From IMG/VR virus record IMGVR_UViG_3300042922_000451, positions 1 to 53,657 of that record: a stretch of 53,657 nucleotides of DNA; one strand, given 5' to 3'. A model generated the notes under the pieces. That model saw only the letters and a program-made list of their open reading frames with translations, was not told the origin of the DNA and searched no databases. Shown piece by piece: positions 4,245 to 50,719 of the stretch (its first letter is position 1; every line of letters begins with the position of its first letter). The position numbers and the translations under genes are program-made. This stretch comes from a virus. Taxonomy: Duplodnaviria > Caudoviricetes.

Positions 4245-4515
4245 AATACTCTGTGACACTTGTGACACTTTTTGTACAAGCCTAAAACTTTTATATATTA
4301 TATTTTTTCTATATAATAGTTAAGAGAAAAAAGTGTATTTTTGTCACACAAGTCTGGAAACCCGCATGAATACAGGGATAGAGCCTGTTACACTTTTTTT
4401 AAAAAGTGTCACAATGTTACACTTTTTTGTCACACTTTTCAACACTTCCAAAAAATGTCAAAAATTTTACTAAAAAAAGTGTCACACTTGTGACGTTTTT
4501 GTCACACATTTTTAG
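4245..4515. other. Putative origin of replication with iteron-like GT(C/G/T)ACA repeats
   Basis: Non-coding ~270 bp with about ten TGTCACAC/TGTGACAC/GTTACAC units in both orientations, A/T tracts and an AT-rich stretch at ~4290-4320; lies near the replicase gene. Confidence 0.65.
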
Positions 4516-4518
4516 ACT

Positions 4519-4644
4519 TTATTTTTCCAATTCCTTGACTTTTTTGCTTAATTTACAAACCTTAATGTCAACAAATCCCACATAAATTATTGCAACAACA
4601 CCAACTGCAGCTCCAATCATTCCCATCTTTTTACCATTACACAC
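4519..4644 (-). CDS. Small single-TM protein (41 aa, not in ORF track)
   Basis: Manual translation MCNGKKMGMIGAAVGVVAIIYVGFVDIKVCKLSKKVKELEK; start uncertain. Confidence 0.5.
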   Translation of the reverse strand: MCNGKKMGMIGAAVGVVAIIYVGFVDIKVCKLSKKVKELEK

Positions 4645-6592: not shown

Positions 6593-7525
6593 TCAAATCA
6601 TATCATATATAACTCCAGCTACATTAAAGTCTAGAAGTATTGATCTTTCATATCCATTCACAAAGTCTCTAACTGCCATTTTCTCACCATCGAATAGACC
6701 GAAATCTACGAAGTCATCTCCATACCCTTTAGCCCAACCTGTTATAGAACCTGCGGTAGACCTAGGAATCCCTAGCATATCGTACACTTCATTTAAGAAT
6801 ATATGTCCTCTAGAATGCAACAAATCATTAGCATAATTCTGTTGACACTTTAAGAATGTCAAATTATATTCTGGTGTATTACTCCATTGAGTGCTGCTCT
6901 CATCAAAGTATCTAGCATATTGACTAATGCCATTTGGATCTGTAGTTTCAACTACTTTTGTAACTTTCTTTTCCTTTCCGTCCTCATCAATTTCGGTTAC
7001 TTTAACTTTGTTTTGTTTAATTCCGTTTTTAAGTATCCTATCTTTCTCTGACCCAAATTCATCTACTACACGCTTTCTATAATCAGAGAAGCTAGTTTCA
7101 ACAGCTTTATAAGCCGCTATAAGAGCTATGTTACGTTTCTTCATAATACCATGAGCACCAAGTACACAACCTATAGAAGCCGCACCAAGCACTATTGATG
7201 GACCATACAATTTAACAAAATCGACCCCAGTCTGTACTGTAGCAACTGTTAAGTCTTTTTTATAATCATTTTCTGAATATTCTTCACGAGATAACTCTCC
7301 GGATTCAACTTTGCCCCATGCTTTCTTTATTTTTCCTATTTTTTCCTCGTGAGTATCAAGTACTTCATCTACCTTCAAAGTTGCTCTACATGCCAATACT
7401 GTACTAGCTACTATACCAGCAACTCCAACCGTCATCAATATCTCAGGGCTATATTTTTGTAATATAAGACCACTTCTACCTGCTGTTCTGCTTATTGTAT
7501 TTTTAACCATTTCAATTTTATTCAT
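6593..7525 (-). CDS. DUF6353-like phage protein, paralog of 10509-11339
   Basis: SPEIL..GV.G hydrophobic N-terminus, LNEVYDMLG..GW..LDF; start placed at MNKIE after GGAGG; family call from recall. Confidence 0.7.
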   Translation of the reverse strand: MNKIEMVKNTISRTAGRSGLILQKYSPEILMTVGVAGIVASTVLACRATLKVDEVLDTHEEKIGKIKKAWGKVESGELSREEYSENDYKKDLTVATVQTGVDFVKLYGPSIVLGAASIGCVLGAHGIMKKRNIALIAAYKAVETSFSDYRKRVVDEFGSEKDRILKNGIKQNKVKVTEIDEDGKEKKVTKVVETTDPNGISQYARYFDESSTQWSNTPEYNLTFLKCQQNYANDLLHSRGHIFLNEVYDMLGIPRSTAGSITGWAKGYGDDFVDFGLFDGEKMAVRDFVNGYERSILLDFNVAGVIYDMI

Positions 7526-10480: not shown

Positions 10481-10505
10481 ATTATATGGTATGTAATTTT
10501 CGCGA
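10481..10505 (-). promoter_or_regulatory. TCGC-box promoter copy 2
   Basis: TCGCGAAAATTACATACCATATAAT. Confidence 0.8.
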
Positions 10506-10508
10506 GCA

Positions 10509-11339
10509 TTAATAATCTCTAGTCACATACTTTGGTTCAGTTTCAAAATCTAATGATAAACACGGACGTCCGTCATCTGTTAAATGACTACTAAAATATG
10601 GTTTAATCAAATCACTACCAACTTGGTCTAAATGCCATCCAACAAGGTCCCCCAACTTAGTGCCTTCCAATCCAAGTTCTTGATAAACCTGACTTAATGA
10701 TATAAACATATCACTCATTAAATCTCTGCTAAGTTTATTCAAAGCAGCTCTTATTTTATCAGCATCACTTTTAAAGTATCTGCCAGACATGACATCATAA
10801 CATAAAGTCTCTCCACTTCCAGTGATTATTACTTCGTTTTTACTAACTGGATTCTTATTTATTTTATCTTGTTTAACATCGTCTGATATTTTCTGTTCTT
10901 TTGTTTTACCTACCACCTCAACTACTTTTGCTTGATATTCCTTCAGAGCAGTTTCAGATATAGAATATAAACTGACTAGAGCTGCATTTCTACGTAGGTT
11001 TATACTATTTGCACCAACAATACATGCTATTGTGGCACCCCCCATAAGAACTGTCGGTACATAGCATTTCCATGTTAGTTTAATTACTTCTTTTTTAGTG
11101 AAATCTTTTATTATTTCATTAACTGGTGGAACCATCTTAGTTTTACCATCTATAGTCACTTCCCCATCTCTTCTCTTTCTAAAGGTCTCATCCTGAAGAA
11201 TTTGTAGAGCTTTAGGGGTAGCTCTAATACCCATTATAGTAGTACCAATCATACCAGCCACACTTATGCCTGTTAATATGGTTGGTGAATTTTTAGAAGT
11301 AAAACTACCTATCGATTTAGTTAACGATTTTATATCCAT
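10509..11339 (-). CDS. DUF6353-like phage protein, paralog of 6593-7525
   Basis: NSPTILTGISVAG, RRNAALVSLY, SLSQVYQELG..VGW. Confidence 0.7.
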   Translation of the reverse strand: MDIKSLTKSIGSFTSKNSPTILTGISVAGMIGTTIMGIRATPKALQILQDETFRKRRDGEVTIDGKTKMVPPVNEIIKDFTKKEVIKLTWKCYVPTVLMGGATIACIVGANSINLRRNAALVSLYSISETALKEYQAKVVEVVGKTKEQKISDDVKQDKINKNPVSKNEVIITGSGETLCYDVMSGRYFKSDADKIRAALNKLSRDLMSDMFISLSQVYQELGLEGTKLGDLVGWHLDQVGSDLIKPYFSSHLTDDGRPCLSLDFETEPKYVTRDY

Positions 11340-11353
11340 TTGTTATTCCTCCT

Positions 11354-11668
11354 TTATAAAAATTCTTTTAACGGAATAATTTCTCCATCAGAATTAGCGA
11401 TGTTTAAATGTCCAACACTCTGTTCTAATTTCCGATAGTCATACTCCGATATACAAATTAAATTTAATCTAAATTGTGTTGCCATATTTGCGAAGTCTGG
11501 TGATTCTTTTATTGTTAGAAGATCTTGATGATTCTCTAATAATTCACGAATTAATTGTTCTATTAGAGATTCCTTAATTGAGTTCATTAAATATTCTTTA
11601 CCATGAACTAATTCTTCATTAGATATTTTTAATCGTGCTCGTATCAACTGGTGTTTTTTCATTTTCAT
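11354..11668 (-). CDS. Hypothetical protein, paralog of 11619-11999
   Basis: MKKHQLI..IS..ELV shared N-terminus. Confidence 0.7.
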   Translation of the reverse strand: MKMKKHQLIRARLKISNEELVHGKEYLMNSIKESLIEQLIRELLENHQDLLTIKESPDFANMATQFRLNLICISEYDYRKLEQSVGHLNIANSDGEIIPLKEFL

Positions 11669-11999
11669 TCTCCTTTAAAAAAAAGTTTTTTAATAATATT
11701 TTAATATCATCTATTGTCAGATCTCCAGTATCATTACATATTTGATTAATAATCCAGTTCATTCGATCATTATCATCATGTTGAATGGCTACCAAATTTA
11801 ACGTGTAAACCGTTAAATTATTTTTGAAATCTGTTTCAACTTCCATCTTTAAGAAATCACGATTTTCAGTACATAAATTTTTTATTAATTGGATTGTCAA
11901 GTAATCTTGAATGGTACTTTCAGTTAAAATAAGTGGAGCCTTTACTAATTCAGCCTCGGATATTGATGTTGTTACTTGTATTATCTGGTGTTTTTTCAT
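11619..11999 (-). CDS. Hypothetical protein, paralog of 11354-11668
   Basis: Start placed at MKKHQII after GAAAGGAG. Confidence 0.7.
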   Translation of the reverse strand: MKKHQIIQVTTSISEAELVKAPLILTESTIQDYLTIQLIKNLCTENRDFLKMEVETDFKNNLTVYTLNLVAIQHDDNDRMNWIINQICNDTGDLTIDDIKILLKNFFLKENENEKTPVDTSTIKNI

Positions 12000-12000
12000 T

Positions 12001-12231
12001 TTAGTTCTCCTTTCTAAATGCTTTATAACTAATAAATAAATCATTAACCCAATCTTTATTATTGCCTAATTCTGGATCTATAAAGCTAGCACCAATTAAA
12101 ATTTCTCTATATCCATCGCTATCCGTAACATCCCATATTTCTCTAACTATACATGTTTTTCCCTTATTTTTACCAAACAATGGACTAACGTGATTTCCGC
12201 TTTTTAAAGTTTCAAATTCTTTTAATTTCAT
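12001..12231 (-). CDS. Small KOW-like protein
   Basis: G.NKGK..IVR motif shared with 12483-12875. Confidence 0.65.
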   Translation of the reverse strand: MKLKEFETLKSGNHVSPLFGKNKGKTCIVREIWDVTDSDGYREILIGASFIDPELGNNKDWVNDLFISYKAFRKEN

Positions 12232-12254
12232 GGCGATATCCCTTTCGATTTTTA

Positions 12255-12452
12255 TTATTTATTTTTAGATTGAATAGCGAATTGATATAGTAAAAATGGC
12301 CACAATAATTCAATTACTAAGAATAAACAACACAATACCCAAACTATATGAAGTTCTGATTCATATGAATCCATCTTAAACAATACAATAATGTATAAAA
12401 TCAGACCAATTAATAGGTATATTCCTATAAACACATTTATTATAATTTGCAT
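12255..12452 (-). CDS. Two-TM membrane protein
   Basis: YLLIG...LWP pattern also seen in 17201-17431 and 17497-17691. Confidence 0.65.
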   Translation of the reverse strand: MQIIINVFIGIYLLIGLILYIIVLFKMDSYESELHIVWVLCCLFLVIELLWPFLLYQFAIQSKNK

Positions 12453-12482
12453 GGTGATTATTTCCTTTTCCTCTTTTATTTT

Positions 12483-12875
12483 TTATAAATCAATTTTTCT
12501 AATATGCATATTTACTATGTCAACGTCATCGTCATCGTCACATAATTTCATTTGTTCAAGCATTTTTTCAAGAGCATCTATAGCCTCTTGTTTAGATTCC
12601 GCAACGATCCATCCTATTATTCGATTTGGTTCAATTTCTTTTTCAATGAAATTTACTTGTGTATACTTAAACATATACCATTTGACCTTATCGATCTCAT
12701 ATTTTTTAAGTTCCTTGTTACTAAGTTCAAAACTACAATTTTTTGGTTCTAACCATACAAATCCAGTATCAGTACTTAAATGCCTAACAATACCTATTTT
12801 TCCTTTATTGCGACCGCGGTGTGTCACAATGAGTTCATCTCCAATATTTACATTTTTAAGTTGGTCTGCTTTCAT
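12483..12875 (-). CDS. KOW-like domain protein
   Basis: IGDELIVTHRGRNKGKIGIV; AAGGAG RBS. Confidence 0.65.
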   Translation of the reverse strand: MKADQLKNVNIGDELIVTHRGRNKGKIGIVRHLSTDTGFVWLEPKNCSFELSNKELKKYEIDKVKWYMFKYTQVNFIEKEIEPNRIIGWIVAESKQEAIDALEKMLEQMKLCDDDDDVDIVNMHIRKIDL

Positions 12876-12928: not shown

Positions 12929-13246
12929 TTATTCACGGTACTTTTTATATAGATTTCTAATTTCATAATCTATATATGCCTGTTTATAGTTAATACTATT
13001 TTTTACTAAATCCATCACAACCATAAAATATTTAATGGCTCTAGTTAGCTCCTCAACACAAGCCCCTTTTTTCAACATATCTTTAATCAAATTAAACGCC
13101 CCACCAATCTTTGCATGGCGCATTTTAATACTTAATTCTGTCATTTCATCATAAGCTGGATAAGAAGCTTTAGGATCAAAGTTTCTAAGCTCCTCATTAT
13201 TGATTTGCATTTTGGTGATTTGTTCCAACACATTATTCTTTACCAT
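12929..13246 (-). CDS. Stand-alone paralog of an internal segment of the putative phage RNA polymerase (105 aa)
   Basis: 42/84 identical, ungapped, to residues 595-678 of 46989-49823; RBS TTGAAAGGAG before MVKNN. Confidence 0.85.
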   Translation of the reverse strand: MVKNNVLEQITKMQINNEELRNFDPKASYPAYDEMTELSIKMRHAKIGGAFNLIKDMLKKGACVEELTRAIKYFMVVMDLVKNSINYKQAYIDYEIRNLYKKYRE

Positions 13247-13270
13247 TTCATTAACTCCTTTCAATTTTAG

Positions 13271-13343
13271 AAAAAAATATAGGCATAGCACTTCTCCCAT
13301 TTCAGGGCGTTTTAACTTTTAAACTATTAACGGCTGCTATTCC
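13271..13343 (-). ncRNA. Candidate structured small RNA or terminating leader A
   Basis: Lies between promoter copy 3 and a U7 tract. AGGAAUAGCA/UGCUAUGCCU closes two inner hairpins (CGUU/AACG; CCC-UGAAAU-GGG). No ORF with an RBS. Confidence 0.55.
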
Positions 13344-13347
13344 TTTC

Positions 13348-13372
13348 ATTATATGCTATGTAATCTTCGCGA
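13348..13372 (-). promoter_or_regulatory. TCGC-box promoter copy 3
   Basis: TCGCGAAGATTACATAGCATATAAT. Confidence 0.8.
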
Positions 13373-13373
13373 G

Positions 13374-13565
13374 CTAGTCAGCAAGAAGCCAAAGTTTTCC
13401 ATAATATAATACAGCTTCATTATATAATTCCTGAGTTACCAATGTAGTTTCATTAAGTCCCTTTGCCCATAAAACAGCCCTACTAGAATACGCATATTCC
13501 TCTGGGTATATTTTTGATAATTCTATAGTGGTGTTTTGTATTAGTCTTTTTATTTTTTCATTCAT
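13374..13565 (-). CDS. Hypothetical protein, paralog of 15791-15979
   Basis: KIYPEE...SR...W...Y..A....G.LWL shared. Confidence 0.7.
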   Translation of the reverse strand: MNEKIKRLIQNTTIELSKIYPEEYAYSSRAVLWAKGLNETTLVTQELYNEAVLYYGKLWLLAD

Positions 13566-13626
13566 AATAATTCCACCTTTCAAAAAATATGATGCTAAGT
13601 TTCCTTAACATCTTTTGTAAACTAAT

Positions 13627-13815
13627 TTATTCTTTTTCAACGGTTATCCTTACGTGGTCAGCTTTACACTTTATCTTAATTGTGTCTTTAGTATTTCCTT
13701 CTTGGCTCTTATTAGGATTAGGAATTTCAAATTCCATTTCATAATTTCTAGCTTCGAATAAAACACCCTTCTTCATCAATGCAGATACAAGCATATCTTT
13801 TATATTTCCTAACAT
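13627..13815 (-). CDS. Hypothetical cassette protein
   Basis: RBS GAAAGGGG; followed by GATGTTAAG-GAAA-CTTAGCATC hairpin and T-run. Confidence 0.7.
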   Translation of the reverse strand: MLGNIKDMLVSALMKKGVLFEARNYEMEFEIPNPNKSQEGNTKDTIKIKCKADHVRITVEKE

Positions 13816-13850
13816 AATAATATCCCCTTTCAAAAATAAGTTTATCTTTC

Positions 13851-13875
13851 ATTATACCCTGTGTAATTTCTGCGA
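13851..13875 (-). promoter_or_regulatory. TCGC-box promoter copy 4
   Basis: TCGCAGAAATTACACAGGGTATAAT. Confidence 0.85.
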
Positions 13876-13877
13876 GC

Positions 13878-13994
13878 AAAAAAGAAAGAGTACTAATGGA
13901 CTCCCTCGACTAAATACTATAAACTCCACCTTATAGTTTGCGATGTTAATATCTTTCAATATTATCCTCTTAGTGTTCATTGGCTTGAACTTCT
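13878..13994 (-). ncRNA. Candidate structured small RNA B
   Basis: Lies between promoter copy 5 and terminator GAGGGAGU/ACUCUUUC-U6. Hairpins GUUCA/UGAAC, AAUAUU-GAAA-GAUAUU and ACUAUAA/UUAUAGU; ACUAA/UUAGU closes a junction. Confidence 0.6.
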
Positions 13995-13999
13995 CTTTC

Positions 14000-14024
14000 A
14001 TTATACCCTGTGTAATTTCTGCGA
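14000..14024 (-). promoter_or_regulatory. TCGC-box promoter copy 5
   Basis: TCGCAGAAATTACACAGGGTATAAT, identical to copies 4 and 8. Confidence 0.85.
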
Positions 14025-14038
14025 GCAAAAAAAGAAGA

Positions 14039-14233
14039 CTAAGCTTCTTTCGCTATAATCTCCATTTCTTTTATTTTTTGTAATCCTTTATCTATTTTTT
14101 TCTGTAAATCCTTATTTAATTCTTTTTCAGTTCTAATCTCCTTAAGTCCCTTCAAACCTTTATATATCATTACTATACCCGCTATCATTAATGCTCCGCG
14201 TAATCCTAATTCCACTTTATTGTTTGTAAACAT
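14039..14233 (-). CDS. Single-TM coiled-coil cassette protein
   Basis: AGGAGG RBS; ends KEA-stop inside the terminator. Confidence 0.75.
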   Translation of the reverse strand: MFTNNKVELGLRGALMIAGIVMIYKGLKGLKEIRTEKELNKDLQKKIDKGLQKIKEMEIIAKEA

Positions 14234-14268
14234 AATTAATTCCTCCTAAAATTCTTATTAATTCTTTC

Positions 14269-14293
14269 ATTATATACTGTGTAATTTCCGCGA
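14269..14293 (-). promoter_or_regulatory. TCGC-box promoter copy 6
   Basis: TCGCGGAAATTACACAGTATATAAT. Confidence 0.8.
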
Positions 14294-14308
14294 GGATAGA
14301 ATTATTCA

Positions 14309-14710
14309 CTATTCAGACTTTGGGTGATCCGTAGAATCAATATAGTTATAACTAACAGTCTCAGACCCATCAACTATCGGTATTCTTGAAGGTATATCTT
14401 GTAATTCTGGATGTTTTTCTTCCATCCACATAGCCCCTAATATATTCCAAGCCGCAGCAGTTAAATGGTCCTCGTCGGTTTGTCCGTCTAAATATTTTAA
14501 CAAATGTCTCATTCCACTATCAATCATAACACTAAGTGGAATTCCTTTTTCCCAATTTCTATCGGCATATTTTTTAGCACCTTCTTCATAATGTTTTGAT
14601 AATCTTAATAAAGCACACGCAGGTAATAAATCGCACCTACCCTTTCCATTAGGCATATCTCTAACCGCACCGGAACTAAATTCTCGTCTATTTCCACTAT
14701 CTTTTAACAT
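14309..14710 (-). CDS. dATP/dGTP diphosphohydrolase domain protein (DUF5664-like)
   Basis: GAVRD..GKGRCDLLP, GAKKYADRNWEKG, EDHLTAAAWN. Confidence 0.85.
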   Translation of the reverse strand: MLKDSGNRREFSSGAVRDMPNGKGRCDLLPACALLRLSKHYEEGAKKYADRNWEKGIPLSVMIDSGMRHLLKYLDGQTDEDHLTAAAWNILGAMWMEEKHPELQDIPSRIPIVDGSETVSYNYIDSTDHPKSE

Positions 14711-14734
14711 ATTATATCACCTCTGTTTTATATA

Positions 14735-15130
14735 TTATAGCATTTGATTTATTTTATACAATTGTTCGCGGTACATATCAGTATCGAAATTATGCCCGAA
14801 TCTCATCTTTCTAACCCTGGCCAAAGCCCAATCGCGCCGATCATGTTTTTTACCAATCATAAATGTTGACGCCCATGGTGTGGCATTGGGACTAATATAA
14901 AAATATAATGGTACCCATATTAATTTTCCTCCATATGAGAAGAAGTCCACAATTCCACAGAAAAGCGGTAATCTGAAACATATATACCCAAATTTTTTAG
15001 TGCTAAATGTTACACCAAAGTGCATAGCATTATCTCCAAAAATCGTTAGCTTACCAATACTAATGTGTCCGCCTATTATTCTATTTAAGAATCTACCAAT
15101 CTTTCTCTTCACAATATATTTATTAATCAT
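14735..15130 (-). CDS. Hypothetical protein
   Basis: 131-aa ORF in an operon with thyX. Confidence 0.65.
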   Translation of the reverse strand: MINKYIVKRKIGRFLNRIIGGHISIGKLTIFGDNAMHFGVTFSTKKFGYICFRLPLFCGIVDFFSYGGKLIWVPLYFYISPNATPWASTFMIGKKHDRRDWALARVRKMRFGHNFDTDMYREQLYKINQML

Positions 15131-15141
15131 ATTACCATCCC

Positions 15142-15765
15142 CTATTTCAATAATTTTACTATATCTTCAAATATTACCGGCATTACTTCATATAATTCCA
15201 TTAATAATGGTACAGTCACTTCTCTTATTTGTGGATGCGCAGCCTGTGACGTACGTAGCCTCAAGAAGTGTCTCCACTCACGTATGTTCGCTGTCATTAT
15301 TATATCTGTCTTGAGACTATTTGGTAATACCGAACGAGCTTCTTGTGGTGTTGCTCCATCATTTAATAATGATATATAATTATATTCTGCTACTTCACAC
15401 GACCTTTTCCATTTGTCATATTCTTCATCCGTCGATTCCCAGAATAATGGCTCAATAACCGTTATTTCATCAGCTTTTCCATAATTACAATATCGCGTTG
15501 ACTCTTGTGAAAATGATGCTATTCTATGACGCACTATCTCATGAGATATCCCCCTATCCACAATAAAGCGTACTGAGAAGCTAACATGTTCTAGCACAGA
15601 TTCGTGTCCTCTATTTATGATGTTTACAATAAACTTCTCAGCTGAGCTTACTGTTATTTTTTCTTCAGATTTATAACAAACTCGTCCACAAAGTTCTATT
15701 TTTTTCAGAATATCGTGCCCTTTCAATTCATCTATAATTGAGTAACTAGCTTTAATAATGTTCAT
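15142..15765 (-). CDS. thyX: Flavin-dependent thymidylate synthase
   Basis: HESVLEH, RHRIASFSQESTRY, ARSVLP, AHPQIR motifs. Confidence 0.95.
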   Translation of the reverse strand: MNIIKASYSIIDELKGHDILKKIELCGRVCYKSEEKITVSSAEKFIVNIINRGHESVLEHVSFSVRFIVDRGISHEIVRHRIASFSQESTRYCNYGKADEITVIEPLFWESTDEEYDKWKRSCEVAEYNYISLLNDGATPQEARSVLPNSLKTDIIMTANIREWRHFLRLRTSQAAHPQIREVTVPLLMELYEVMPVIFEDIVKLLK

Positions 15766-15790
15766 ATATTTTCCTCCCTATTATTTTAAT

Positions 15791-15979
15791 TTATTTTCTA
15801 GTATAAAGCCATAAGTCGCCAAAATGACTCTTAGCCTGTTCGTAAAAGTCTAGAGTTATTAAACCATCAATTAAAGCCATAGTCCACACACTCCATCTAC
15901 TGCCACCATCAGCTTCTTCCGGATATATTTTTAATAACTCAGTTGTTTTCTCATCAAAAATTTCAATATTTACTTCCAT
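15791..15979 (-). CDS. Hypothetical protein, paralog of 13374-13565
   Basis: Paralogy; GAAAGGAGG RBS. Confidence 0.7.
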   Translation of the reverse strand: MEVNIEIFDEKTTELLKIYPEEADGGSRWSVWTMALIDGLITLDFYEQAKSHFGDLWLYTRK

Positions 15980-16011
15980 GGTAATCCTCCTTTCAAAAAA
16001 TAAAAAGAAGC

Positions 16012-16170
16012 TTATTCAGCTTCCTTCTTTAAATTCTTTTTAATTTTTATTACAAATTTAATATTATCGATAAATGCATCTCCTAGATTTGTTATGTATT
16101 CTACCACCATAATAATTGTCATGATTGGTAAGTATAATAGACCTACTATAAAATATAAAATCTTTTTCAT
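16012..16170 (-). CDS. 52-aa membrane cassette protein (not in ORF track)
   Basis: MKKILYFIVGLLYLPIMTIIMVVEY...KKEAE; AGGAGG RBS; own promoter and terminator. Confidence 0.75.
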   Translation of the reverse strand: MKKILYFIVGLLYLPIMTIIMVVEYITNLGDAFIDNIKFVIKIKKNLKKEAE

Positions 16171-16196
16171 ATTAATTCCTCCTAAAAATTTATTTC

Positions 16197-16221
16197 ATTA
16201 TATGATATGTAATTTCAGCGA
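16197..16221 (-). promoter_or_regulatory. TCGC-box promoter copy 7
   Basis: TCGCTGAAATTACATATCATATAAT. Confidence 0.8.
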
Positions 16222-16223
16222 GC

Positions 16224-16333
16224 AAAAAAAAGAGCTAGGGCTGACGACCCAACGAAAATCGTCATTAGGGAGTTTCTCTGCTCCCGCCTAGTAGAGTGGA
16301 CTATTGCTCCACCACCTTCGTGTCTTACTACTC
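16224..16333 (-). ncRNA. Candidate structured small RNA C (two three-way junctions)
   Basis: GC-rich island between promoter copy 8 and U8. AGUAG/CUACU closes CAC-GAAG-GUG and GUGGA/UCCAC; CUAGG/CCUAG closes GGGAG/CUCCC and UGACGAU/GUCGUCA. Confidence 0.7.
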
Positions 16334-16337
16334 TTTC

Positions 16338-16362
16338 ATTATACCCTGTGTAATTTCTGCGA
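16338..16362 (-). promoter_or_regulatory. TCGC-box promoter copy 8
   Basis: TCGCAGAAATTACACAGGGTATAAT. Confidence 0.85.
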
Positions 16363-16393
16363 GCTAATTATTCTTCATGATAATTTATCATAT

Positions 16394-17143
16394 CTAAAAT
16401 AACCCGTTCAACAAATTAATTAATGGTATTGCTATTCTTTTATGACCGTCTTCATTTGGATGCACCCCATCTCCCTTATTAGAATAATATTTCTCAAACA
16501 TATACCCATTATTAGGATTTAATCCACTATATTTATTTGTGTCATATATAATACATCCATACAATTCAGAAATATCTCTAATAGCTTTTCTATAATCGCC
16601 TAATAAAGCTCCTGTAGCATTTTTAGTATAATCAAATACATTATCTCCGTACGTAGCAATTAACGGCGTCATTAATACTATTTTAGCCTTAGGGTACATA
16701 GCTTGCATATTATATATTGTCTCACCCAGTGCCCCTATAAATGTTTTTCTATCAGTAGAGAAGTCACCTATTGGTACATTCATCGCATAATCATTGGTAC
16801 CACCAAATATAACGATTATATCAAAGTAATCTCTAGGATATTCTTTTATGATGTCTTTATATCTATCTACAAATGCCCCATATTTAGCATTGTTATTCTC
16901 TGCAATAGTTGACTCGTTTTGTCCAAAATTATAACAGTTAGCTCCTGTTTCTTGTGCTATAATATCTATATACTTTTTAGTTCCATTCTTAGCAGTTAAG
17001 CTATCTCCTAAGAATACTATATTTTTATCACTCAATTTAGATTGGTTTTCTATTGACTCATTAGCGTTCGTACTTACCCTTGGTAACGTTGACCATAATA
17101 CCGATATAAATAACAAACCAATTGCTAATATTATTTTTCTCAT
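16394..17143 (-). CDS. Secreted SGNH/GDSL-family esterase
   Basis: Signal peptide; GDSL, GGTND and DGVHP catalytic blocks. Confidence 0.9.
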   Translation of the reverse strand: MRKIILAIGLLFISVLWSTLPRVSTNANESIENQSKLSDKNIVFLGDSLTAKNGTKKYIDIIAQETGANCYNFGQNESTIAENNNAKYGAFVDRYKDIIKEYPRDYFDIIVIFGGTNDYAMNVPIGDFSTDRKTFIGALGETIYNMQAMYPKAKIVLMTPLIATYGDNVFDYTKNATGALLGDYRKAIRDISELYGCIIYDTNKYSGLNPNNGYMFEKYYSNKGDGVHPNEDGHKRIAIPLINLLNGLF

Positions 17144-46512: not shown

Positions 46513-46538
46513 ATTATCACCCCTTTTCGTATAGTTTT

Positions 46539-46649
46539 TGAGTGCTTTTACATATGGAGTCGGGTCTTTATAGATAAACTTGAAAGGAGAACAGGATCAC
46601 CACAACCTGTTTGGAAGTAAAGACCCGGCACCATATGTAAAAGCACTCA
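46539..46649. repeat. 32-bp inverted repeat enclosing a 47-nt loop with an inner hairpin
   Basis: Arms 46539-46570 and 46618-46649 are 30/32 complementary; inner AACAGG/CCTGTT. Confidence 0.9.
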
Positions 46650-46678
46650 GAAAAATGACCTCCGGAGAATTTTTTAGG

Positions 46679-46687
46679 AGGCACGCG
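46679..46687 (-). other. Candidate cos site (CGCGTGCCT)
   Basis: GC-rich island in the gap upstream of the packaging genes; resembles, from recall, the 9-nt CGC...CT 3' overhangs of actinophages with this gene order. Confidence 0.5.
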
Positions 46688-46746
46688 ATAGAGATGGGGG
46701 GTCTTTTCTGCGAGACCCTCCCCCTATACCATAAACAATTATAAAA

Positions 46747-46988: not shown

Positions 46989-49823
46989 TCAACTCCTTTC
47001 AAATATTTTAGCTATAGTACTTGTAGATACACCTAAAGCATCTGCAATCTCAGCTTGCGTATACCCAGCTTCAACCATCATTTTAGCTTTTTGTTGTTTA
47101 CCATCACTAACACCTTTATTAGTTCTAGGTGTAGCTAATTGTTTAACTTTATCAAGGTCAGTGTTACTAAGTATTTGTGTTAGAATGTTGGTACTAACAG
47201 CTCCAGCTTGTATAGCTTCCCATTCTTTATCAGAGATAGTCACTAATGTTTTTTTAGCATCAACTCTAGTACGAGCTTCTGCCATAGCTTGACCTCTTAT
47301 CTTTTTTAAATCTTCTTTAGTCATATTAGGATTAGCTGATTTTTTCATTGATACTATAGTATTACCTATAATTTGCGCTTGTCTTTCTAAAGGCGCATTC
47401 TTTAAAGCTATGTTCAAACTGGCTTTTAACGAATTAACTTCTGATTCGTATACTTGTTTAGCTGAAGGTGAATAGGGTACATACTGTGTAGTAATAGATG
47501 CTTTTCTAGCTTCATTAGCTAGACTTTTTAATTTATTAGCATGTTGAGCATACACTGTTTCCATAGGGGTACCAGATGATAATTCAAAGGCATCTTGTGC
47601 CTCAGCCATTTTAGTTGACGATATAGTACGGGGTTGTTCTTTTCCTTTCGCATCGATATATGTTTCATTTGTATATGTGTATATTTTTTTACCTGTCTTT
47701 GGATCTATTGTTTCTTTTCTTACGCCAACTCTTTCATCAGAAGACGCTTTTGATATTAATGTAGAAGATCCACTTCGTTCACTACCTTGATATCTTTTCT
47801 TTAATTCAGCAATCCCATTGTCTATATAGGACTGCTTATAATTAAGATTGTGTTTTTCAGAATCGATAACCACCATTGAATGTCTAACAGCTGCGGCTAT
47901 TTCATCATCGTTTGCTCCTTTTATGGTCATGTCGGTTATAAGATTAGATACATCCCCCATTTTCATTTGCTTAGTTCTAGGACTTATTTTAGTCATACCT
48001 TCATATGCTGGGTACGAAATTTTAGGATCAAAATTAGCAAGACCCTTTAATGGAGATGATACTTTTATTTCTCCTTTTGGATTAGGAATTACTAATACTG
48101 TATCGCCGTCAGCATCGGCACCTGATAATGTTTGAAAAGTTTTAGGATGTATTCCGATTGCATCTTTAGCATTTTTAAATAGATTATTTCCAGTTTTATT
48201 TTTATTATTTACAGTAAGTTGAGGTATTTCAAATATACCTCCATGTGGATATCTAATCAAAACTACAGTTTCACCATTTCTATAATTTGGTGCGTATACT
48301 TCATTTTTTTTGATATCTACAATTGGAAGCAATACATGTGCTGCTTGTCGTGGAAGGGCAGCTGCTTTTAGATGAACTGATGATGAATCGCAATCATCAG
48401 CGAAGGAATCAAGTAATCTTTTTTTAACAGCTGGATTAGTTAAGGACATTATCTCATCAAATTCTTCTTTCTTAATATCAAATGCTAACCCTAACTGTTT
48501 TTTAGCTAGTGCTGGAGTTTGTTTGGAAAGCATCTGTGAAGATAATGTTTTAGACCATTTACCCCAATCTCCTTCTTCGTTTACTATATTTAATGATGAT
48601 AGTTTTTTATCACCATTAGAATCTATATAATGTTTTTGCCTGACACTAGCTCCGAATGGATTATCAGGATCTGGTTTTATAGAACCATCACTTACTCCTT
48701 TTTTAATCAAATCATCTTTTTCATCTTTGGATATATTTAATTCTAGAATCGATTTAACTTTAGGATCAGTCATATCTGCAGCCATAGTTTTAAATACTTT
48801 ACTTTTATCTGTTCCTAATTTCTTATTTGTATTATATATCATGTCAACTCCATCAGGCATGTTATCCGCATATATGGCCATACCTTTCATATAATGACGG
48901 TCATCAACGCCTATACGAACTTGTGCATATTTAGCGTTACCTAAAGATATATCATCAACACCTCTTCTTAATTCAACAACTCCATCTTTATCGACTCCAC
49001 CATCGTCGGCATATCTAATCATAACTCTTTTAGAATCAACACTTCTTATTGGTTCTAAACCCAAAACAGACCTTCCACCATCTTCTGAGTAGTCAGTTAT
49101 AAGTTTAACATTATTTTTATTTTTATATACATCAGAAAAGGAATCTTTTATTAAAGATTTTACATCATCCTCACTTATTCCTAATTCTTTAGATATATCA
49201 GATTCGGACATTTTTTTATTAAATAGTTTTATAACTTCAGTTGCTTCTTTTGTTTTCGGTTTAGATAACACCATTACTGTTGTATTTTTCCCTGTTCCTA
49301 ATTGTTCCACTTGAGTATATGTTACTAAATATCCTTCTTCCTCCAACATGGCTATCGATGTTTTTAATTTATTTCTAGGTATTCCAATATGTCTTTCTAC
49401 ACCAATACCAACATCAATATAACCTTTTTTTTCAACATTTTCTTTTAACATATTAGCAATCGTATCAGTTATTTCAGAACGTTCTTTAAGAGCAGGATCT
49501 AATAACGCCCTTACTGATGATTCATTAATTCCCATTCTTTCACCAATAGCAACATTTGAATATCCTTTATCTTTCAGTCTAAGAGCTTCTGCTAAATCAG
49601 CTTTTCTTTGTTCAGCTTTAGCTATAGATTTTTTATTTCTAAGTTGAGATGTTGTCATACCCATACCTTTTGCTATTTCAACTTCACTAATACCTTTTTT
49701 TCTTAAATCATCAACATAGCCTAAAAAACTTTTATTTCTTTGTTCTGGACTATCGCCCGACCCCCATGGATATCTACCAGAGTGACGAGGAGTTCCATAG
49801 TGGAGTATAATGTTATTAGCCAT
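46989..49823 (-). CDS. Putative single-chain two-barrel (DPBB) DNA-dependent RNA polymerase with flanking HTH domains
   Basis: YMKGM, LIRYPH, and LSGADADGDTV (DxDGD at 48102-48116); HTH-like segments GYSNVAIGERMGINESSVR and GYTQAEIADALGVSTSTI. Confidence 0.75.
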   Translation of the reverse strand: MANNIILHYGTPRHSGRYPWGSGDSPEQRNKSFLGYVDDLRKKGISEVEIAKGMGMTTSQLRNKKSIAKAEQRKADLAEALRLKDKGYSNVAIGERMGINESSVRALLDPALKERSEITDTIANMLKENVEKKGYIDVGIGVERHIGIPRNKLKTSIAMLEEEGYLVTYTQVEQLGTGKNTTVMVLSKPKTKEATEVIKLFNKKMSESDISKELGISEDDVKSLIKDSFSDVYKNKNNVKLITDYSEDGGRSVLGLEPIRSVDSKRVMIRYADDGGVDKDGVVELRRGVDDISLGNAKYAQVRIGVDDRHYMKGMAIYADNMPDGVDMIYNTNKKLGTDKSKVFKTMAADMTDPKVKSILELNISKDEKDDLIKKGVSDGSIKPDPDNPFGASVRQKHYIDSNGDKKLSSLNIVNEEGDWGKWSKTLSSQMLSKQTPALAKKQLGLAFDIKKEEFDEIMSLTNPAVKKRLLDSFADDCDSSSVHLKAAALPRQAAHVLLPIVDIKKNEVYAPNYRNGETVVLIRYPHGGIFEIPQLTVNNKNKTGNNLFKNAKDAIGIHPKTFQTLSGADADGDTVLVIPNPKGEIKVSSPLKGLANFDPKISYPAYEGMTKISPRTKQMKMGDVSNLITDMTIKGANDDEIAAAVRHSMVVIDSEKHNLNYKQSYIDNGIAELKKRYQGSERSGSSTLISKASSDERVGVRKETIDPKTGKKIYTYTNETYIDAKGKEQPRTISSTKMAEAQDAFELSSGTPMETVYAQHANKLKSLANEARKASITTQYVPYSPSAKQVYESEVNSLKASLNIALKNAPLERQAQIIGNTIVSMKKSANPNMTKEDLKKIRGQAMAEARTRVDAKKTLVTISDKEWEAIQAGAVSTNILTQILSNTDLDKVKQLATPRTNKGVSDGKQQKAKMMVEAGYTQAEIADALGVSTSTIAKIFERS

Positions 49824-50642: not shown

Positions 50643-50694
50643 CGAGCGACCTCCTTTTTAAAAAATTATAAGACAGGCGTATCCTATCTCTTCT

Positions 50695-50719
50695 ATTATA
50701 GCATACGATTTTCACGCGA
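50695..50719 (-). promoter_or_regulatory. TCGC-box promoter copy 16, upstream of the nuclease-RNAP operon
   Basis: TCGCGTGAAAATCGTATGCTATAAT. Confidence 0.75.

Follow-up and report, generated by a model that had tools for sequence, protein, structure and literature searches.

A putative terminator-like leader RNA between a recurring promoter box and an RNA polymerase-fragment gene in a Caudoviricetes genome

The leader and its surroundings

The window analyzed here, 53,657 nucleotides (nt) of IMG/VR virus record IMGVR_UViG_3300042922_000451 (Duplodnaviria; Caudoviricetes), is a complete phage genome with a terminal repeat of 127 base pairs (bp); the IMG/VR record likewise gives direct terminal repeats and 100% completeness. 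Its G+C content is 32.7% and all called genes are on the - strand. In the direction of transcription, the replication genes are followed by an endonuclease-exonuclease-polymerase operon (50642-46989), a 234-nt gap, the structural and lysis genes, and a 10-kb block of small genes (19364-9800). Within this block, a short leader separates one copy of a recurring promoter box from a gene for a fragment of the phage's RNA polymerase. A first-pass annotation of the sequence had described this leader as a structured, terminating RNA. Our leading interpretation, to which we give about an even chance on sequence evidence, is that it is a promoter-proximal, leaky terminator-like or small-RNA module, one of a recurring class (box, RNA closed at its 5' end, U tract and ribosome-binding site, RBS), and that it is not coupled to the fragment gene. 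The features of the locus, in the order of transcription, are:

13374..13565, - strand: upstream gene of 63 amino acids (aa), its stop codon 1 nt before the box
13348..13372, - strand: promoter box copy, TCGC at 13372-13369 and TATAAT at 13353-13348; one of 16 same-strand copies
13271..13347, - strand: predicted leader RNA to the end of the U run, 70-77 nt if transcription starts at or just after G13347
13335..13344, - strand: 5' strand of the closing stem, (A)GGAAUAGCA, after the GAA that follows TATAAT
13296..13307, - strand: inner hairpin CCC/GGG, the sole inner helix left in the centroid fold
13281..13290, - strand: 3' strand of the closing stem, UGCUAUGCC(U), pairing with 13344-13335
13271..13277, - strand: U7 run, preceded by UAUA (13281-13278)
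13255..13260, - strand: RBS AAGGAG in a recurrent TTGAAAGGAG context, with the ATG at 13246
12929..13246, - strand: 105-aa fragment gene, a stand-alone paralog of polymerase residues 595-679
10509..12875, - strand: six further genes, the last of them DUF6353 (10509-11339), with no box of the same class between
10481..10505, - strand: next promoter box copy, with 2 mismatches in 26 to the copy at 13372

Strict matches to TCGC-N15-TATAAT number 15, all on the - strand, against 1.3 expected, and a TATAAC variant at about 17483 is the sixteenth copy. With a leave-one-out matrix, the copy at 13372 scores 33.6 bits, in the middle of the range of 5.9-52.8 bits found among the copies; no site on the + strand exceeds 15 bits. 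Like the other boxes of the group, this copy is on the coding strand and upstream of an RBS or RNA unit. The next copy (10505) is 2867 nt downstream, and the matrix scan found no box-class match between 13348 and 10505. The seven genes from 13246 to 10509 would therefore need read-through of the leader, as the first-pass annotation had proposed. An independent promoter at 13250-13275 was considered and rejected for want of a box-class match. Sigma-70-like matches at 9 of 12 positions occur at 13305-13276 and 13264-13235, and such matches are at chance level in the genome (54 against 53.8 expected). A lone TAAAAT at 13269-13264 would place the start within the RBS. No terminator lies between the 63-aa gene and the box, so that transcripts from the box at 13875 should also enter the leader stem and U7.

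The closing stem joins 13343-13335 to 13290-13282 in eight of nine positions, or nine of ten if the optional A13344-U13281 is counted, which bears out the stem originally drawn at this place. It holds four G-C pairs and one mismatch, its duplex energy is -10.9 kcal/mol, and its core pairs have probabilities of 0.99-1.0. The best fold without it is worse by 7.6 kcal/mol (-5.8 vs -13.4 kcal/mol). A duplex of this energy was reached by only 0.15% of random 18-mers from the genome and 0.12% of shuffles (p about 0.0015 and 0.0012), and the chance of finding a U7 within 5 nt of a given point is about 0.002. The stem interior is about 44-46 nt long and mostly A/U, with 62 nt between the stem ends. 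The three-way junction first suggested for this interior did not hold up: the inner helices are weak, at 3-4 bp, one of them is kept in the centroid, and the energy of the fold is that of shuffled sequence. After the stem, 11 of 11 bases of the U tract (UAUA plus U7) are A or U, the first four being interrupted. In a read-through RNA the U run can pair with the RBS (GAAAGGAGU) through nine pairs, three of them G-U (4.7 kcal/mol).

We compared the leader with known RNA families. Rfam gave no match in the whole window at the gathering score, none in 13200-16400 with E up to 1, and only three chance-level matches, none of them to the tRNA model, in 13100-13500 with E up to 10. ARAGORN called no tRNA gene in the whole window, and the leader has no tRNA features. 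By the criteria for riboswitches and attenuators, it shows neither a mutually exclusive fold nor a known aptamer. No homolog of the leader interior was found in the phage collection (megablast, blastn), in the rest of the genome, or at 16 loci with DUF6353. Two sequencing runs contain the leader, both of DNA and possibly the source samples, and none is of RNA. One DNA run has a 6-base deletion at 12524.

Recurrence of the leader layout in the genome and in related phages

Twenty-one runs of six or more T are found on the - strand. A depletion of such runs on the coding strand was considered and rejected, a first-order Markov simulation giving 24.5 +/- 4.8. The placement of the runs is nevertheless non-random: nine of the 21 sit 2-3 nt before a box, five are directly before an RBS (the leader U7 among them), four are in coding sequence and three are in a single repeat array. 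Between 19500 and 9300, ten hairpin-plus-T-tract sites lie right before the next box, the TATAAC variant included. Units of this region are thus delimited by classical terminator signals, and, as ten of them end in this way, whichever polymerase initiates at the box is very likely to respond to a stem plus U tract. At four further sites (17212, 16028, 13614 and 9859) the hairpin and T tract lead straight to an RBS and no new box intervenes, which suggests that read-through operons are common in this region and not special to the fragment gene. At 16000 and 13587 the U run abuts the RBS directly, without a loop. The strong local hairpins at 13589-13614 and 16002-16028 (-), with AUUUUUUG, fold at -11.4 and -11.8 kcal/mol and abut the next RBS inside operons; they resemble internal terminators and have no box behind them. 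The proposal that U tracts of the leader type are more interrupted than those between units was dropped after a census.

Two units of the block run from box to box:

16222-16362, - strand: box-RNA-terminator-box unit, RNA of 116 nt, z-score (z) -1.5
13876-14024, - strand: box-RNA-terminator-box unit, RNA of 124 nt, z -2.2

Neither unit has a convincing open reading frame (ORF) or an Rfam match, and both are candidate small RNA genes, so that the phage does seem to make small RNAs from its boxes. The segment 13877-14028 is missing from one DNA contig, perhaps only because the boxes on either side are identical.

Four related contigs were found through the box pattern. Their box copies (7, 11, 5 and 15) are confined to the coding strand, and polymerases from these contigs are 68, 63 and 49% identical. 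Across the five genomes there are 53 strict boxes, about 41 of which have leaders of 12-41 nt. Four boxes drive an RNA unit that the next box follows; behind another seven, a long leader and T run lead to an RBS, and no new box intervenes. Twelve long RNA units were folded, and in all 12 a closing stem reaches from nt 1-5 after TATAAT to the U tract; the most stable is G003-29301 (z -5.2).

Orthologs of the DUF6353 gene at 10509-11339 were identified in two of these genomes (G003 and G004) and in 16 viral contigs. In G003 and in locus L130, a tRNA-like RNA, a U run and an RBS come in turn after the last box ahead of DUF6353; ARAGORN calls these RNAs an 88-nt "tRNA-Pro" (G003) and a "tRNA-???" with a two-base anticodon (L130). 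In L120, which has the closest DUF6353 (59% identical), inspection by eye found a 5'-closed RNA with a T-arm-like hairpin. The head of DUF6353 in Arthrobacter phage Mudcat has a 5' hairpin and a Y-shaped fold closed by 8 bp, with a U run, and G000 also has such a module behind the last box before DUF6353. DUF6353 heads in G004, L121 and L124-126 have short leaders. We suggest from these comparisons that the leader studied here fills an "RNA slot" heading the DUF6353 operon, and that the fragment gene and five small genes, which are absent from the relatives, were added behind it in this phage only. The genome has two DUF6353 paralogs, at 6593-7525 and 10509-11339 (-). G003 and G004 also have two each, and both G003 copies are behind a structured leader.

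Transfer RNA-like RNAs directly behind the box were found at 18757-18844 of L020 (G003), 855-927 of L027 (G001), and 2211-2282 and about 1197-1290 of L130. They have abnormal (two-base) anticodon loops or the 88-nt form. No CCA is encoded in any of them, a U run comes after each, and they may mimic tRNAs instead of serving in decoding.

The layout is also found ahead of the polymerase operon. From 525 relatives of the endonuclease we kept 80 loci (L029-L108) with 60 distinct upstream regions, of which 49 bear a box. At least 28 of the 49 have the series of box, hairpin, T tract and RBS, under a strict rule by which the hairpin starts no more than 6 nt from the hexamer and ends no more than 4 nt from the T tract; several of the misses are artefacts of the T-tract rule. 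The sequences of the stems differ widely between loci. In this genome the corresponding leader is 50655-50719 (-), with a hairpin within the folded segment 50694-50655 (z -3.4), and three such leaders folded singly gave z of -2.3 to -3.4. The conserved leader probably limits or times expression of the polymerase.

The polymerase, its fragment and the promoter box

The protein of which the fragment is a paralog is encoded in the operon upstream of the structural genes:

46989..49823, - strand: 944-aa single-chain two-barrel RNA polymerase, matching phrog_4291 over its full length (E 0), with a DADGD loop

The polymerase has N-terminal helix-turn-helix (HTH) repeats and, at residues 915-943, an HTH resembling sigma-70 region 4. 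Its best named relatives are from Arthrobacter phages (53% identity), and no match to it was found among PDB sequences. This polymerase group has been described as the signature gene of a supercluster that includes actinobacteriophages, Lactococcus phage 1706 and Faecalibacterium phage FP_oengus (bioRxiv 10.1101/842583); the accessible portion of that preprint does not address promoters. The promoters and terminators of single-chain two-barrel phage polymerases are likewise left open in the accessible portion of Forrest et al. 2017 (PMC5467207). Our literature search found nothing on the present phage group, on the promoters of phage 1706, or on intergenic motifs of Arthrobacter phages with this polymerase.

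Nearly the same box of 24-25 bases, spacer included, occurs in Mudcat (NC_031224, 26670-32030 and 55497; L112-L118). There are seven copies on its + (coding) strand and none on the - strand, and their placement is that seen here, with copies both within the block of small genes and ahead of the polymerase operon. Such conservation of a sequence across phyla points to recognition by a phage protein. In the 49 box-bearing regions described above, the final hexamer is TCTAAT in 12 and TTTTAT in 11. From the conservation across host phyla and these variants, the box is probably the phage polymerase's own promoter, a conclusion that we hold with reasonable, not high, confidence. Sigma-70-type -10 elements need an A at position 2, so that TCTAAT and TTTTAT favor the phage enzyme over a sigma-70 reading. 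RNA stems and the 5' ends of tRNA-like RNAs begin 1-5 nt past the hexamer, too near for a start 7 nt downstream, which again favors the phage enzyme, as does the presence of the region 4-like HTH in a phage for which a separate sigma was not found. Several observations speak for the host enzyme instead, or at least against this assignment. The hexamer of the 13372 copy is a perfect TATAAT at the -10 place (the -35 place has TAGCTC, two of six matches to a TTGACA-like hexamer), and TGn or TRTG precedes TATAAT in several copies. In addition, the polymerase's own operon lies behind such a box, and in the phage 1706 record the proteins marked as structural do not include the polymerase.

The box pattern was unmatched in Lactococcus phage 1706, which has another repeat array upstream of its polymerase gene. 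The YonO system of SPbeta also has a single-chain two-barrel polymerase, a non-coding RNA before the first gene and a promoter that has not been defined in print. It differs in that YonO is only a distant relative and serves a late operon, and a similar box was not seen when the 1.7-kb yonN-yonK gap was inspected by eye.

The gene behind the leader had been taken for an RNA polymerase fragment preceded by an RBS, and both assignments stand. Its product is 49% identical (42/85; E 9e-26) to residues 595-679 of the polymerase and retains 24 columns that are invariant among the polymerases of seven relatives. By alignment it is a helical segment starting right after the DADGD catalytic loop. Structure prediction gave a confident helical domain for the fragment (predicted local distance difference test, pLDDT, 86.7), with no match to PDB folds at E up to 0.001. 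The model of the full polymerase is poor (pLDDT 63.6, predicted template modeling score, pTM, 0.38, from an 8-row alignment) and cannot place the duplicated segment. Among 5.8 billion proteins, the only match of 57-184 aa to the fragment was the fragment itself. Five matches were found in viral contigs, and the three with ORFs listed lie inside polymerases of 889-909 aa; a metagenome scan gave four matches with 43-62% identity. No second copy was found by tblastn in any of the four related genomes: G001, G003 and G004 match only within the polymerase, and G002, a 35%-complete fragment genome, has no match to the 105-aa protein. Judged by these comparisons, the fragment gene is a recent singleton, apparently inserted behind the leader module. 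That it serves as a decoy or modulator is speculation.

Interpretation of the leader

We propose that transcription begins at TATAAT or a few bases past it, and that 13344-13335 then pairs with 13290-13281 around a weakly structured interior, leaving UAUAU7 behind the stem. Some polymerases would stop at the U tract and free an RNA of about 70 nt with paired ends. The remainder would read through, expressing the fragment gene and the six genes to DUF6353, and the same stem would cap the 5' end of the read-through mRNA, in which the U run can pair with the RBS. Because the stem spans 46 nt and UAUA precedes the U7, we expect termination to be partial.

A number of results weigh against such a module. 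The stem p-value is post hoc, and is nearer 0.02 when about 16 leaders are allowed for. As a whole, the leader folds at -13.4 kcal/mol, compared with -11.9 +/- 2.7 kcal/mol for shuffles, and z is -0.56, -0.23 and +0.41 for starts 1, 5 and 7 nt after TATAAT. A sigma-70-like start (13341, 7 nt past TATAAT) would lose both G-C pairs and leave only a 6-bp, A/U-rich stem 7 nt from the U run. Canonical intrinsic terminators have loops of 3-8 nt, and 46 nt are enclosed here. A consensus terminator scan did not call the leader site, UAUA separates U7 from the last G-C pair, and the two DNA runs are identical over the leader, so that covariation in the stem is not readable.

The element shares features with known systems. 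It has the stable, G-C-containing stem and U-rich tract of rho-independent terminators, their Y-shaped variants included, and departs from them in its 46-nt loop, its one mismatch, the UAUA before U7 and its location in a 5' leader. A parallel in layout is found in phage lambda, where the PR' promoter is followed by the close intrinsic terminator tR', giving 6S RNA, and Q acts in antitermination. In both cases a short RNA is made, or would be made, and the downstream genes need read-through. The present case differs in that the stem encloses the short RNA from end to end and that a phage polymerase probably reads the promoter, and neither a Q- or N-like gene (Pfam, 63 proteins) nor a qut- or nut-like site was found.

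Of the other explanations, one that we regard as unlikely is a regulated attenuator, in which stem and U7 would stop one polymerase, or the unmodified one, while a second polymerase or an antiterminator would pass, thus timing the fragment operon; the fragment might then feed back. In many relatives the polymerase operon has kept a hairpin and T tract between box and RBS, a sign that dosage or timing may be under selected control, and the phage has its own polymerase with a sigma-70 region 4-like HTH and other HTH domains. The flap domain, which controls hairpin-dependent pausing and termination, is absent from the YonO enzyme class, according to the accessible part of PMC5467207, and this too would suit an attenuator. 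Yet the closing stem has no competing fold, Rfam offers no leader family, and a Pfam scan of 63 proteins, many small ones of which belong to no family at all, turned up neither an antiterminator family nor one for a separate sigma. The same layout also heads operons unrelated to transcription. The fragment gene, moreover, is unique to this phage, which makes a conserved circuit with it impossible. The feedback circuit of polymerase, promoter motif, leader and fragment that had been envisaged in the first-pass annotation is thus not supported: the fragment has no stand-alone relative, the layout heads operons that have no fragment, and the conserved linkage of RNA and fragment gene proposed there as a check is absent, no relative having the gene.

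We give a similarly low probability to a trans-acting or decoy small RNA as the main product, a third RNA gene that would be the positional successor of the relatives' tRNA-like RNAs, with downstream expression as a by-product. The earlier suggestion of a third small RNA was a reasonable one in view of the two box-RNA-terminator-box units of this genome and the tRNA-like RNAs, with their abnormal anticodon loops, behind the same box at the syntenic place. Stable small RNAs typically have paired 5' and 3' ends, as does the leader. Against this possibility, the A/U-rich interior is weakly folded and conserved nowhere, and a search for duplexes between the interior and 81 start regions reached -20.6 kcal/mol at best, an unconvincing value that 5% of 60 shuffles attain as well. 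No new box follows the leader, unlike the RNA-only units, and seven genes depend on passage. The tRNA genes of phage early operons offer a comparison, the relatives' tRNA-like RNAs being at the same position with the box before and the U run and RBS after. The leader differs from them in having no tRNA features (ARAGORN, tRNA models) and 62 nt between its stem ends.

Slightly less probable still is a 5' untranslated region (UTR) device without termination, in which the stem would shield the mRNA from a 5' exonuclease, and base pairing between U tract and RBS would adjust translation. The leader of T7 gene 10, with a stem-loop from +1, an A/U-rich spacer and a strong RBS, is the precedent; here too a promoter ending at +1 is followed by a 5'-end hairpin, a U-rich spacer and a strong RBS. 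The T7 element differs in not being terminator-like, and its polymerase is of an unrelated family. In favor of such a device, the stem and the presumed 5' end are 3 nt apart, GAAAGGAGU is paired with the U run when the full leader is folded, and 5'-closed hairpins directly after the box recur in relatives. A U run would be superfluous for stabilization, but almost every analogous leader has retained one, and identical hairpin-plus-U signals end units before ten boxes. Nor is pairing of U run and Shine-Dalgarno sequence general, since at 16000 and 13587 the two abut without a loop. The least probable explanation, a chance or relic arrangement such as a terminator left downstream of the box by gene insertion, would fit the shuffle-level fold energy, the lack of homologs and covariation, and a recent rearrangement of the locus, as suggested by the absence of the fragment gene and its five small neighbors from relatives, but is improbable given the stem p of about 0.0015, the chance of about 0.002 for the adjacent U7, and the recurrence of the layout at the syntenic position in distant relatives.

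The leaky module that we prefer would be of interest mainly as part of a conserved system of promoters and leaders, previously undescribed, in phages whose two-barrel polymerases are fused to HTH domains. A broader model, which we offer as a tentative possibility, is that the box is the promoter of an HTH-fused two-barrel polymerase of the YonO/QDE-1 type with +1 directly after TATAAT, that the 5'-closed hairpin-plus-U modules are its terminators or attenuators, and that the system spans phages from those of Arthrobacter to low-GC soil and gut phages. The leader at 13271-13347 would then gate an operon that opens with a free post-catalytic helical domain, a possible decoy or modulator.

Taken by itself, the element would be a minor example of gene control in phages; it is valuable as a way to approach the promoters and terminators of two-barrel polymerases. 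The phage group offers a 25-base box conserved across phyla, small RNA units whose ends probably correspond to the points of initiation and termination, and a short template (13400-13200), with which the promoter specificity, start site and termination of a recombinant enzyme become directly testable. The relatives' tRNA-like RNAs with abnormal anticodon loops at the same slot and the singleton polymerase-domain paralog are further leads.

Two other non-coding regions of the genome were noted. At 4250-4520, in a gap among the replication genes, about ten copies of a AAAAAGTGTCACA-like word, some in each orientation and accompanied by three T runs, form what is likely to be an origin or operator array. 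The 234-nt gap (46513-46746, -) that separates the first structural genes from the polymerase operon is G+C-rich and folds at -86 kcal/mol (z -7.2), with a hairpin of about 30 bp inside it; it could be the leader or promoter region of the late operon, or a packaging site.

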